Position numbers and translations under genes: made by a program. The notes under the pieces were generated by a model that saw only the letters and a list, made by a program, of their open reading frames with translations, did no database searches and was not told the origin of the DNA. From Thermoleophilaceae bacterium (GTDB lineage: Bacteria > Actinomycetota > Thermoleophilia > Solirubrobacterales > Thermoleophilaceae), in contig JACCSF010000088.1 of assembly GCA_013813135.1 (NCBI GenBank), forward strand, positions 1 through 43,376: a stretch of 43,376 bases of DNA, in the 5' to 3' direction. Of this stretch, positions 30,932-35,981 are shown piece after piece (within the stretch, counting starts at the first letter, position 1; every line of letters starts with the position of its first letter).

Positions 30932-31036
30932 CTATGGTGGCCGCCGCGCGCTTGATCGTCGCCCTCTGCGAGGTTCGCTACACCGGTCGCCCTGACCGCC
31001 GGCTCCGCGAGGCCCTGCGTCTGCCGATGCTGAAGT
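30932..31036 (+). pseudogene. Diverged duplicate of the first ~34 codons of nucS
   Basis: MVAAARLIVALCEVRYTGRPDRRLREALRLPMLK-stop, compared with the intact NucS N-terminus [33 protein letters not shown]. A 17-nt identical core, gcgcttgatcgtcgccc, is shared. Confidence 0.7.
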
Positions 31037-31123
31037 GACCCGCCGTCCAGCGCTCCCCAGGCGGGGTGGACGGTCGAGCGAGCCGGAGGAGCGGACCCCG
31101 CCCTGGCCTATCATCCGAGAGCC

Positions 31124-31918
31124 GTGCCACCCGACCTGCAACCCAGGGCAGCGGTCGAGCTCGTGGACGTCGTCAAGGAATTCGGTTCTGAGCGCGTCCT
31201 TGACGGGGTTGATCTTGCTGTGCCGGCTGGCGCCATCACGGTGCTGCTCGGTCCCTCGGGGGCCGGAAAGACCGTCACGATCCAGCACATTCTCGGCCTG
31301 CTCAAGCCCTCGGCCGGGGTCGTAAAGGTGGACGGCGAGGACCTCGCCGCCATATCGGAGGAGGAGCTCTACGAGGTCCGGCGCGGGATGAGCGTCGTGC
31401 TCCAGGGCTCCCTGCCGTTCACCTGCGGCCTCTTCTACTCGCTCAACGTGTACGAGAATGTGGCCTACGGTCTACGCGAGCGGACCCGCTGGTCAGACGA
31501 AAGGATCGACCGGGTGACTAAGGAGGCCCTCCGCACAGTGGGTCTCCAAGACCACGCCGACAGGATGCCAGGCGAGCTCTCCGGTGGGATGGCCAAGCGG
31601 ACGGCGCTCGCGAGGGCGCTCGCCCTCAAGTCGAGCATCGTCATCATCGACGACCTCGACGCCGGGCTCGACAGCGTTCGCCTGAGCTTGCTTTGCGCGG
31701 TGATCCGCGACGCGCAGGAGGACACGGATGCCACGGTCCTCGTCACGACCCACGACATGAAGGTGGCCCGTGACCTGGCCGACTTTGTCGCCCTGATCCA
31801 CGAGGGCCGCATCATCGCTAACGGAGAGGCGGACGCCGTGCTCGGCTCCGATGAGCCGTTCGTCCGCCAGTTCGTCAGTGGCGCGCGCTCCGGTCCCCTC
31901 CAGCTGCGCGACACATAG
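31124..31918 (+). CDS. ABC transporter ATP-binding protein, MlaF/Mkl-like, with an atypical Walker B
   Basis: Walker A GPSGAGKT, signature LSGGMAKR, H-loop VTTHDM. Walker B reads IVIIDDLDAGLD where this family normally has DEP. No permease or substrate-binding gene is adjacent. Confidence 0.8.
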   Translation: MPPDLQPRAAVELVDVVKEFGSERVLDGVDLAVPAGAITVLLGPSGAGKTVTIQHILGLLKPSAGVVKVDGEDLAAISEEELYEVRRGMSVVLQGSLPFTCGLFYSLNVYENVAYGLRERTRWSDERIDRVTKEALRTVGLQDHADRMPGELSGGMAKRTALARALALKSSIVIIDDLDAGLDSVRLSLLCAVIRDAQEDTDATVLVTTHDMKVARDLADFVALIHEGRIIANGEADAVLGSDEPFVRQFVSGARSGPLQLRDT

Positions 31919-32138
31919 CGGCGTCGTGGCTGCAGCTCTCGCACTCCCGGCGACGACGGACGCCGTGGGCCGTCGTTCCCGAGTCGATCACCGTCGCGGC
32001 CAGATCACCCGGCGGCCTTGTCACGCGGCCCGCTTTCCCGCGACTTCCCGGCCGCGGCCCTCGAGCGGTCCGTGTCCCAGCTGATGGGGTAGCCTCAAAC
32101 ATGGGAGTGACCTCCTCCGGGCATCGACCGCCCGGTAA

Positions 32139-32279
32139 TCGTGGGAATCGAGGGCCGCTTCCGGCCGGAAGCTCGGCGTCAATCGCAACCTGCGCGGCCG
32201 CAAGGTGCAATGCAGAGTGACGGCGTACAACGCCGCCGGGGCGACCACCGCGCTCAGCCGGCCGTTGCGCATCCGCTGA
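32139..32279 (+). pseudogene. C-terminal scrap of an Ig-like-repeat surface protein
   Basis: No start codon. Reads ...GRKVQCRVTAYNAAGATTALSRPLRIR-stop. The xCxVTAxNxAG motif is typical of tandem Ig-like repeats in actinobacterial surface proteins. Confidence 0.35.
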
Positions 32280-32378
32280 ATCTCACGTTCGTCAACCACG
32301 CCCACGACTGCACGGTCTTGGAGCAGCCCGGGGGGGCCTTACGGGGCCACCCTCGGGGTGGTCGTTCACCCCAAAGCT

Positions 32379-33904: not shown

Positions 33905-34099
33905 GCTGATACCTCCTCGGGATCTGACAGCGTGCGCAGCCATGAGGCCACGGCGGACTCGAGCTCGTCCGGGGCGTGGCGCTCGTACGTGGTGAACCGC
34001 CCGCCGCAGCGTTCACATTCGCGCCGTCGCCGCCCCTTGGGGTGAGGGCCGGCTATCGACCACGCGCGTGTTGATCGCGTTGCACGCTGGGCACCTCAT
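33901..34099 (-). pseudogene. NrdR-like zinc-ribbon-only protein, frameshifted
   Basis: MRCPACNAINTRVVDSRPSP in one frame, then KGRRRRECERCGGRFTTYERHAPDEL... in the next. No ATP-cone. Its stop overlaps the next ATG (ATGA). Confidence 0.55.
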
Positions 34100-34194
34100 A
34101 CGGCGAGTATCCCAGATATGCCCGGTCGACCCGCTGTTTATGCGCCGCTGACTACTAGATGTAGTGGTTCGCTGCAACCGGAGCGGCGGGGGCG

Positions 34195-34524
34195 TCAGGC
34201 GGAGGTGGCACAGAACGTGCCCGTGCCCGTGACCCCGTCGGGGCGGATGAAGCCCTGGACACCGAAGAACGCCCCGTACACGTGCTCGCACAGCCTCCGC
34301 TGGACAGCGAGCTGTGCTGGCCTGAAGGCCGTGAAGAGCCCGCCCTCCTTGTCGCAGTAGAGGTCGAGCAGGTCAATAGACACGAGGAAGGTGCCGCCTT
34401 GCGCCTCGCAGACCGCCTGAAACGGGCGCGACTTGGTCACCGGAAGCGTGGCGCTGGCCGAGCTGGCAAGCGCGAGCGTGACGAGCACGGACGCCAGCAT
34501 CGCGGCGAAGACCCTGAACCTCAC
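34195..34524 (-). CDS. Small secreted cysteine-containing protein, no family recognised
   Basis: GTG start giving VRFRVFAAMLASVLVTLALASSASA-TLPV (signal peptide with an AxA site). The mature part of ~85 aa has 4 Cys. Confidence 0.5.
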   Translation of the reverse strand: MRFRVFAAMLASVLVTLALASSASATLPVTKSRPFQAVCEAQGGTFLVSIDLLDLYCDKEGGLFTAFRPAQLAVQRRLCEHVYGAFFGVQGFIRPDGVTGTGTFCATSA

Positions 34525-35312
34525 GCACGCGACCCTCTCACGTCGACCGCGGAACCGCAAGGCTGCACCCCTCCACGCAGGCCTTGCCTCGGTTGGTCGT
34601 TCAGCCCCCATCCGGTGGGTTCGAGGACAACGGCTGGCTCGAGGCGCACTGCTGCCCCGTCAAGGCGGACAGCAGTGGCCAAAATCCAGCGGGACTAAGG
34701 AATCCGTTTGGTCTCAGCGAAGGGTCTCAAGCGTGTACCCCCCGCTCGCGTGAGCGTTGGGGGCTCTGGGAATTCACCGGGACCTTTTGGTGAGCGGCTG
34801 TCGAACCGCTGCTACGGCTATGGCACGTGTGCTGAACTGGCGCGGGCCGCCGTCGGTGCCGAGACGACCCTCACACGTGGTGAAGGAGCCCGCCGGACCT
34901 CGATGCCCAGCCAAGCGCGCCGACCGCGCGGGCTCAGAGTGGTTCTCAGTCAGCGGCGGCTCCCGTGTCGACGGGGCGGCGGATCTCGCGGCCGCGTAGG
35001 CAGCCGCAGCGGTATGTCTCAACGGCGTACCGGACTCCGGCGATGGTGCGGTCGCGTACCGCCTCGCGGCGCCCGGCGAGCGAGCTCCCGCAGCGCCGGC
35101 ACTCGAGCGGGTCGTGTGGCCGTCGCCAGGGCCGAGAGCTTGTCCGACCTTCGAACGGGGTAGCGTCTAGCGCGATCCTTTGCAGGGGGTCGGTCCTTTC
35201 TCCGGGCGTGGAACACCCGGGTTGTTTGCGGAACGGTTGGCGCGGGGCGCTCGAGAGGGCGGCCTTCGTCGTTCAGGGGGAGGCGTCCGCGGAGGCGATT
35301 ACCGTCGCCACG

Positions 35313-35981
35313 ATGCGCTTGATCGTCGCCCGCTGCGAGGTCGTCTACTCGGGTCGCCTGAGCACTCGGCTGCCCGAGGCGCTGCGCCTTCTGATGGTCA
35401 AGTCGGACGGCACGTTCATGGTCTGGTCCGACAGTGGCGGCTCTAAAGTCAAGCCGCAGAACTGGATGACCCCGCCGGCCGTGATCGAGGAGGAGCCGGG
35501 CCGGATGATGGTGCGCAAGAAGGCGGGCGCGACCGAGGACCGGCTCGAGATCCGCATCGCCGAGGTGATCTCGGACGTGACCCACGACATGGGCGAGGCG
35601 GCCGCGCTCGAGAAGGAGGGCGTCGAGCGCGAGCTGCAGGAGCTGCTGGCGGACGCTCCCCCCGAGGGCCTGCGCCTGGTGCGGCGTGAGTGGCCGACGG
35701 ACATCGGCCCGGTCGACCTGATGTGCCGCGACGATGACGACGGCTTCGTCGCCGTCGAGATCAAGCGCGTCGGCACGATCGAGGCCGTGGAGCAGCTCAC
35801 GCGCTACCTCGAGCGCATCTGCGAAGAGCCTGGGCTGGCCCGCTGCCGTGGCGTGCTCGCCGCCGAGGCGATCAAGCCGCAGGCGCGCGTGCTGGCCGAG
35901 GCGCGCGGAATCGCCTGCGTAGAGGTCGACCCGGCCGTGCTGCGCGGCGAGCGCGAGCCGGATCTGACGCTGTTCGCCTAG
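35313..35981 (+). CDS. nucS: Endonuclease NucS (EndoMS), mismatch-specific
   Basis: Full-length match to the NucS layout: [16 protein letters not shown]...KPQNWMTPP...[36 protein letters not shown]...[14 protein letters not shown]. Confidence 0.9.
   Translation: [222 protein letters not shown]

Follow-up and report, generated by a model that had tools for sequence, protein, structure and literature searches.

Mobile elements that use tRNA and tmRNA genes carry an attP with a surrogate gene end, return to the same site, accrete in tandem, decay to remnants without a recombinase and vary in their cargo. The element e14 resides inside a conserved housekeeping gene, and the diverged gene end that it brings keeps the open reading frame (ORF) intact, so that the functional gene is a chimera of host and element. 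Here we describe a locus of this kind at nucS in a soil Thermoleophilaceae bacterium (assembly GCA_013813135.1), on a stretch of 43,376 nucleotides (nt) of contig JACCSF010000088.1 that is referred to below as the window. NucS/EndoMS is the mismatch-repair enzyme of Actinobacteria, where it determines how fast mutations arise and how readily diverged DNA recombines; to our knowledge, Actinobacteria are without MutS and MutL. The working nucS of the window is a chimera in which imported codons 1–45 of a divergent type are fused in frame to the resident gene, and a dead stub of the ancestral 5′ end lies upstream of it. A full-text literature search returned no paper on nucS as an attachment site.

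In E. coli, e14 and phage 21 supply icd with an alternative gene end and leave the host fragment, icdC, as a pseudogene (PMC13626634). The nucS locus resembles e14/icd in its apparent integration inside a conserved gene, its element-borne gene end and the displaced host fragment at the other junction. It differs in that e14 replaces the 3′ end and needs no promoter or start codon, whereas the nucS insert replaces the 5′ end, start codon and promoter; moreover, e14 retains its integrase and can excise, whereas the nucS insert is without a recombinase and its stub is too decayed to restore the gene. SpyCIM1 and related phage-like islands of S. pyogenes (SpyCI) attach at the 5′ end of the mismatch-repair gene mutL and block its transcription, acting as a reversible switch through excision and re-integration (PMC4689407, PMC3430984). 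The two cases share a phage-like element at the 5′ end of a mismatch-repair gene, which ties mobile DNA to the control of mutation rate. SpyCI, however, silences reversibly, whereas the nucS element would have rebuilt an intact gene with a putative promoter and is now fixed, and NucS belongs to a non-canonical pathway independent of MutS and MutL. Because the stub has decayed, no reversible switch operates at the window nucS in its present state. With tRNA and tmRNA islands the locus has in common the surrogate end, reuse of the site across lineages, accretion and decay, but its target is protein-coding, the replacement affects the 5′ end instead of the 3′ end and the surrogate alters the protein sequence. 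Homology-facilitated illegitimate recombination (HFIR) in natural transformation likewise anchors one side in a conserved gene, leaves the other junction variable and involves no element machinery; at nucS, in contrast, the right breakpoint does not vary, and independent loci have a resident fragment that ends at the identical nucleotide.

The two nucS 5′ ends of the window

The nucS gene at 35313..35981 is intact and encodes a protein of 222 amino acids (aa) with both NucS domains (Pfam NucS_N PF21003, 2e-20; NucS_C PF01939, 4e-28) and a score of 272 bits against the NCBIfam NucS equivalog NF002876 (cut-off 252); no exact match for the protein is on record. Its residues Y12 and N50/W51 and its catalytic D..E-x-K align to archaeal NucS/EndoMS (2VLD, 5GKE), Y12 corresponding to Tyr41 of T. 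kodakarensis EndoMS and N50/W51 to the base-binding N76/W77. For comparison, a NucS scan with one genome per species yielded 80 loci, nearly all from metagenome-assembled genomes (MAGs) of Thermoleophilaceae/Solirubrobacterales, or 81 with the window. The N-terminus of NucS is nearly invariant in 71 of these 81 genes (H-type), while the other 10, the window gene among them, carry a divergent N-terminus with a 2-aa insertion (W-type). Besides this insertion, about 10 of 45 residues are changed between the W-type module and the H-type; the W-for-H position aligns with His67 of EndoMS, for which we know of no assigned role.

The change of type is abrupt. Against its nearest neighbour, L004, the window gene shows 27/130 mismatches before nt 131, then 0/50 and 6/210 in total, and about 10% thereafter (H-type numbering). 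From its divergence from L004 and its place on the W side of the W/H split in the tree of the N-terminal part, the imported W-type module comprises codons 1–45 (35313..35448, + strand), which differ in type from every close relative. It is followed by a 16-nt core, TCAAGCCGCAGAACTG (35449..35464, +; 137–152 nt into the gene), which spans codons V46..W51 of the KPQNW motif, is the probable crossover region and occurs in the window as a sole copy. The remainder (35465..35981, +) is the resident, ancestral part of nucS, with 89–91% nt identity to the five closest Thermoleophilaceae genomes (L001–L005), whose NucS proteins are 87–89% identical to that of the window. Y12 thus lies in the imported part and N50/W51 are encoded by the core, while the catalytic D..E-x-K is encoded in the resident part. 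The window module also matches metagenomic W-type proteins. Between it and the module of the independent contig L103, 14 nt differences fall in synonymous and 7 in non-synonymous codon pairs, with 4 aa changes in 42 residues; on these counts the W-type module appears to be under constraint. Immediately upstream, an element-derived spacer with the putative promoter region of the chimeric gene (35186..35312, +) is homologous to L070 (69%), L098 (73%) and L103 (77%) and to no H-type locus, and supplies nucS with a -10-like TACCGT (35300..35305).

The second nucS 5′ end lies next to the PNPOx/F420-PPOX-like gene, the ancestral left neighbour of nucS. Positions 30937..31036 and 35304..35403 form a direct repeat in the same orientation, with 74% identity ungapped, 76% with two 1-nt indels allowed and 81% (74/91) in an alternative gapped alignment. 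Its local score of 51 stands far above the controls (mean 11, standard deviation 1.8, maximum 20; n=527 160-nt segments of the window, both strands). An earlier reading of this DNA from its letters alone (the sequence-only reading) had proposed a diverged copy of the nucS start upstream of intact nucS and, on the intact gene, an imported 5′ arm; both proposals are borne out, and orthologous nucS starts are even closer to the stub than the window gene is, at 84–89% including the spacer. The same reading had singled out a 17-nt identical core. The exact 17-mer, GCGCTTGATCGTCGCCC, is indeed present at 30948 and 35315, but only 8 of the 81 nucS genes have an exact copy of it, although that start region is well conserved family-wide, and the role of crossover falls to TCAAGCCGCAGAACTG. 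Similarity between the copies extends about 10 nt 5′ of the start codon, and in both the start is preceded at a distance of 7 nt by a TAnnnT hexamer (TATGGT, 30933..30938, and the TACCGT already mentioned).

The stub proper (30946..31036, +) corresponds to nt 1–91 of an H-type nucS. It is 86–89% identical to the nucS 5′ ends of L001–L005, matching the remainder of the gene (88–90%), whereas the present 5′ end of the window gene reaches 82–87%. The 39 nt before it (30907..30945, +) are the ancestral upstream spacer with the -10-like TATGGT; spacer and stub together align to L002 9963..10091 at 89% and to L001 and L003–L005 at 84–87%. Because stub and spacer are as close to the nucS starts of these genomes as the gene remainder is, the stub is the displaced ancestral 5′ end of nucS, still at its ancestral position. 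Its start codon is mutated to GCG, it carries two compensating 1-nt indels and it runs into a stop at 31036..31038; the ORF previously drawn from 30932 has its ATG at 30934, upstream of the point where the nucS register begins. In alignments to almost every one of the 80 loci, homology with the stub goes no further than nucS nt 91. The duplicated length was originally about 146 nt and the window stub has since lost the core-proximal nt 92–146, which accounts for the single core copy in the window. The sequences beyond the junctions (after stub nt 91 in the window, and in L070, L007 and L093), in which a hidden nt 147–160 was sought, were not more nucS-like than shuffles. A 38-nt match of 84% links window 31026..31062, spanning the stub end and the first 26 nt of the insert, to L093 3303..3340 (also in L094–L096). 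It is inverted relative to the homology that these loci share with zf, the terminal insert gene discussed below, and shows no significant resemblance to nucS; the match may reflect an element-end or att-arm motif, or have arisen by chance.

The PNPOx-like gene (29968..30906, −; weak PNPOx_N and TIGR03618 matches) is transcribed divergently from nucS. In L001–L005 the two genes are divergent neighbours 40–46 nt apart, with none of the interval genes at those loci. Empty sites therefore exist, as the sequence-only reading had anticipated, and the alternative that the interval consists of conserved syntenic core genes is refuted for this locus. In the window the ancestral flank ends 4,372 nt upstream of the nucS ATG, and about 4.4 kb has been inserted to the right of the stub. 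The imported DNA totals 4,412 nt (31037..35448), made up of the insert proper (31037..35312) and the nucS 5′ module, and is absent from L001–L005. The PNPOx–nucS spacer is by itself a variable region: additional DNA is present there in two H-type genomes as well (L065 7846..9975; L013 7030..10000) without a stub or 5′ replacement, that of L065 containing a gene for a 705-aa membrane protein and a repeat of about 9 nt of the spacer, and that of L013 amounting to about 3 kb.

W-type nucS among related loci

The ten W-type loci are the window, L007, L027, L069, L070, L071, L073, L074, L075 and L076. In all of them, H-type genes of the same neighbourhood are the closest to the part of nucS that follows the core, and the part that precedes the core clusters with other W-types. 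On a neighbour-joining tree of nt 147–660 the W/H state changes 8 times (shuffled labels: mean 9.5, minimum 7), compared with 1 change, a single W/H split, on the tree of nt 1–130. The mismatch density between W-type genes and their nearest H-type genes is 20–55% over nt 1–130 and falls to background from nt 131 in 9/9 W-type genes tested. From this discordance we infer that the swap of the nucS front end arose independently about eight times among the 81 loci.

Novel DNA separates the ancestral flank from nucS in 8/8 W-type loci with enough upstream sequence, the contigs of L027 and L076 being too short for this assessment. It ranges from 0.13 to 6.9 kb: 6.9 kb in L070, 4.37 kb in the window, 3.9 kb in L071, 1.4 kb in L069, 1.3 kb in L075, 0.9 kb in L007 and 0.13 kb in L074; the upstream region of L073 is rearranged. 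Extra H-type 5′ fragments are restricted to W-type loci, namely the window, L070 and L007, and no W-type fragment was found in an H-type locus of the 81-locus set. The L070 stub ends with ...GGCTTCAAGCCGCAGAACTG, after which the sequence continues ATAGG, and the L007 stub with ...GGGTTCAAGCCGCAGAAGTG, followed by CGAG. Both stubs stop at nt 146, immediately behind a second core copy (16/16 positions in L070, 15/16 in L007). All three stubs are internally damaged: that of the window lacks nt 92–146 and the start codon, that of L070 about -15 to +98 and that of L007 nt 19–112. In four further W-type loci the stub is wholly gone and the neighbouring gene spared. A promoter-bearing N-terminal fragment of a dimeric enzyme would presumably be deleterious and quickly inactivated.

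The front end of the insert recurs as well. Its terminal gene, which we call zf (34949..35185, −), encodes a C4 zinc-ribbon protein of about 75 aa and is divergent from nucS; its start codon has changed from ATG to CTG, and the ORF is otherwise open. Homologues number 14, all metagenomic, with 53–68% identity. The whole unit of zf, spacer and W-type nucS′ is found in L103, with 77% identity over 421 collinear nt, and remnants of it in L070 and L027. Clusters led by zf occupy at least four chromosomal contexts: those of L098 and the P0245 contig adjoin the dinB start, those of L093–L096 and L105 adjoin an Rrf2 regulator, and in L101 small zinc-finger genes and a Phage_capsid gene (PF05065, 39.9 bits) come after the cluster. 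Together, the zinc-ribbon matches of the insert to phage families (PHROGs), the contexts of zf and the L101 capsid gene provide modest evidence of mobile-element content.

Several observations on individual loci may be added. The gene dinB, which encodes a translesion polymerase, has the zf cluster with its upstream spacer right at its start codon in L098 (1..600) and the P0245 contig (JGI 3300041967), and in L098 the homology to window 34977..35297 starts a few nt from the dinB GTG; the element family may use dinB as a second DNA-repair gene. L101 contains, about 150 nt upstream of zf (650..760), a tRNA-like T-arm (GGTTCGAATCC, minus strand) that neither ARAGORN nor Rfam calls, and that may be a tRNA-fragment att site. 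A GC-rich hairpin, CCGGG-N9-CCCGG, lies at 35202..35220 in the window, just upstream of the zf ribosome-binding site; it has equivalents with different loop and stem sequences in L027, L070 and L098 and may be an operator or regulatory hairpin. L071 and L073, both from MAG MFD00392.bin.2.114, are 99%-identical W-type nucS loci on two contigs; their upstream regions differ by indels, with a transposase like those of insertion sequences (IS) 4 kb upstream in L073, and the pair could be strain heterogeneity or a true duplication. In L074, nt 181–220 form a second short hyper-divergent patch downstream of the core (18–19/40 mismatches versus 7/40 in the H/H control). Many nucS genes of long-read soil MAGs are split by single frameshifts (L070 10001..10664, L081, L082 and proteins P0038, P0055, P0066, P0091, P0093 and P0103); the splits most likely reflect indel errors in assembly and not pseudogenes, and calls of decay that rest on frameshifts in such assemblies warrant caution. 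L081 and L082, native W-type nucS lineages with KPLNW, were considered as direct donors and rejected because their upstream DNA is unrelated.

Proposed site-specific integration and competing explanations

The arrangement probably goes back to a circular phage-like element that carried a nucS′ arm, entered by site-specific integration of the Campbell type and then decayed. The ancestral chromosome had the PNPOx-like gene directly beside nucS, and foreign DNA entered inside nucS; the attP of the element would have been composed of the nucS′ arm and the 16-nt core. At the right junction, the imported arm, with a putative promoter and W-type codons 1–45, is fused in frame at TCAAGCCGCAGAACTG and gives an intact chimeric NucS; at the left, the resident 5′ end, nt 1–146 at the outset, was displaced and stayed as a promoter-bearing stub. 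A recombinase would have catalysed the reaction, whether its gene lay close to the stub-side end of the element or the enzyme was provided in trans. Later deletional decay would have removed the recombinase and stub nt 92–146, frameshifted genes and reduced a second element end to about 220 nt, selection retaining only the portion on which nucS now depends. Site specificity is suggested because the right breakpoint is fixed over about eight events and L070 and L007 share one stub end; neither pattern is what homologous or illegitimate recombination would produce.

A number of results weigh against this explanation. Its main weakness is that a six-frame scan of the window insert found no integrase, recombinase or transposase, and the tested ORFs of the L070, L071 and L007 inserts contained no recombinase domain either. 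The cargo differs wholly between W-type loci, and the regions upstream of W-type modules, the zf group aside, show no conservation beyond about 40 nt. L074 and L069 have almost no extra DNA (0.13 kb and about 1.4 kb). The left junction of the window is without a core copy, so that L070 and L007 alone display an att-type repeat. IMG/VR, GenBank phages and PLSDB yielded no free or intact element with a nucS′ arm: scans of IMG/VR with the W-type nucS′ and zf gave no match, tblastn of the same two queries against GenBank phages and PLSDB gave no relevant match, and the L101 capsid retrieved from IMG/VR one unrelated phage (42% identity) with no other gene in common. A metagenome scan for the conserved upstream block GGTAGCGTCnAGCGCGATCC returned five matches at chance level, with no further homology. 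Two faecal contigs labelled 'Bacteriophage sp.' (L099 and L100) were considered as phage carriers and rejected; they have a full-length nucS and look like bacterial DNA.

The sequence-only reading had also proposed site-specific integration through a nucS-like attP arm; the imported arm and the dead stub that it postulated are both present, while the site-specific mechanism is one that we infer, because no recombinase was found here or in related loci. The features of an integrative element seen at the locus are an empty site, a surrogate end, a recurrent site and modest mobile gene content; an element-encoded recombinase is absent. The locus works like an integrative element with ORF reconstitution, as a decayed remnant and not as a demonstrated member of that class. 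As it stands, the stub could not restore nucS on excision, because it has no start codon and no core and carries two indels.

HFIR or plain homologous recombination would explain the locus differently: linear DNA of a relative, comprising cargo and a W-type nucS, would have been anchored in nucS and joined illegitimately on the other side, with no dedicated element or recombinase. The recombinase-free inserts, their heterogeneous cargo with lineage-typical genes such as the ABC ATPase (91% identical to that of L088), a GC content equal to that of the host, the near absence of an insert in L074 and left boundaries that vary from -29 to -106 in L071, L075, L069 and L074 and lie at +91 in the window would all fit such a process. 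Homologous crossovers, however, would be expected anywhere over the 520 nt of downstream homology, whereas 9/9 W-type genes share one right breakpoint, and the tree of the C-terminal part scatters them among H-types with no donor signal downstream. Nor would illegitimate joints be expected to end the resident fragment of L070 and L007 at exactly nt 146, at the core where the functional gene switches type, and we regard this route as unlikely. That fixed breakpoint, at a conserved and functionally critical motif whose N50/W51 align with the base-binding residues of EndoMS, speaks for intron-less homing, in which a free-standing endonuclease encoded upstream of nucS cuts the KPQNW-coding site and repair copies a resistant W-type 5′ segment along with neighbouring DNA; one insert protein matches PHROGs labelled endonuclease VII and HNH. 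But this protein, of 107 aa, matches with its zinc-ribbon part only, is without the HNH catalytic motif and is absent from all other W-type loci. Homing is moreover contradicted by the existence of stubs, since gene conversion would not duplicate the resident 5′ end upstream and three loci have such a duplicate; it is improbable.

Two further possibilities start from the direct repeat. If the nucS start had been duplicated locally in tandem, diverging thereafter and receiving unrelated insertions, or if it had been converted from a paralogue, a repeat in one orientation would result, and some MAGs do contain two nucS loci (L044/L062 and L071/L073). The functional 5′ end, however, is a distinct type common to unrelated lineages and metagenomic proteins rather than a diverged resident copy, its upstream spacer is homologous to element ends at other loci, and phylogenetic discordance contradicts a local origin, which makes it very improbable. 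Insertion of a transposon or IS with target duplication would also place a direct repeat around the insert, and so might an assembly chimera of two strains, given that the source is probably a metagenome-assembled contig. A repeat of 91–146 nt at 76–81% identity is not a target-site duplication, however, and both terminal inverted repeats and a transposase are absent, while the stub is decayed and embedded in unique sequence and the same architecture recurs in the independent assemblies L070, L007 and L103; both variants are extremely improbable.

This locus and its relatives show that mobile DNA has repeatedly supplanted the promoter and the N-terminal 45 residues of NucS, each time at the same position. 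Under site-specific integration, the core would be a concrete 16-nt candidate attB for a recombinase yet to be found, and the locus would offer a clear natural case of 5′-end surrogate integration, which is rarer than the 3′-end type, since promoter and start codon have to come from the element. If the module alters expression or activity, mobile elements would tune genome stability across a bacterial class, in parallel to SpyCI and mutL but by permanent chimerisation. Tentatively, and as a joint claim that we consider rather doubtful in its entirety, a family of Thermoleophilia phage-like elements might attach inside nucS, with relatives perhaps at the dinB start; integration would overwrite the promoter and the first 45 codons, which encode part of the dimerisation and mismatch-binding domain, and roughly one lineage in ten would permanently use an element-designed NucS with altered expression or altered mismatch or anti-recombination activity.

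Contents of the insert and flanking genes

The sequence-only reading had described the interval as wholly foreign or broken, a single decayed insert with no integrase or recombinase. The last point holds: a six-frame Pfam scan of 31037..35312 detected ABC_tran and two Zn_ribbon_NrdR remnants alone, with no integrase, recombinase or transposase domain. Decay is likewise evident, though remnants of two element ends rather than one were found. The description fails for the first gene of the insert, an intact MlaF/Mkl-like ABC ATPase (31124..31918, +; ABC_tran 9e-26; best NCBIfam match MlaF, below its cut-off), which is typical of the lineage and not junk. It has 91% nt identity to a gene of L088 in a core context and 85% to one of L089, with homology confined to 31098..31918. 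With these counterparts (L088 5535..6355; L089 9993..10814), the gene has a different genomic context in each of three lineages, as though it travelled on its own.

Beyond the ATPase lies a heavily deleted second element end, copy B (31938..32158, −), consisting of an NrdR-like zinc-ribbon piece (31938..31996) and a piece of the region upstream of zf (32111..32158). The two pieces are 85% and 81% identical to L098 1257..1315 and 309..361, respectively, and the six-frame scan gives a second Zn_ribbon_NrdR match here. This further deleted copy of about 220 nt suggests tandem accretion. The better preserved copy A is an NrdR-like zinc-ribbon gene with one frameshift (33901..34099, −), collinear with L098 1231..1346, whose repaired product matches PF22811 (1.4e-16) and PHROG 36879 (9e-10), in agreement with its previous description as a frameshifted NrdR-like gene. 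Between the two copies, the double zinc-ribbon protein of 107 aa (32379..32702, −), which had been called phage-style, does match phage families (PHROG 1035 'endonuclease VII', 1.1e-10; PHROG 2255 'HNH endonuclease', 1e-8), and the coiled-coil gene (33120..33905, −) is a multiply frameshifted remnant with overlapping ORFs in three frames, as had been noted; it belongs to no Pfam, PHROG or PADLOC family. For the small secreted Cys protein, a 138-aa ORF with several Cys (34195..34611, −), a signal peptide is indeed predicted, but no family or homologue was found and the status of this entry of the ORF list is uncertain. The label 'Ig-repeat scrap' for 32141..32278 was not confirmed.

The insert has no terminal inverted repeats, and its GC profile matches the host without compositional anomaly. 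Across the window, PADLOC returned generic ABC-ATPase matches only, and a tRNA-Ser at 21916..22005 was the sole result when the window and key loci were searched with Rfam and for tRNAs. On the other side of nucS, a small luciferase-domain gene and a MerR regulator (35978..36793) separate it from a PPK2 gene. Both genes are also found at nucS in L002, L003 and L027 and are absent in L001, L004 and L005, so the pair is a second presence/absence polymorphism adjoining nucS.

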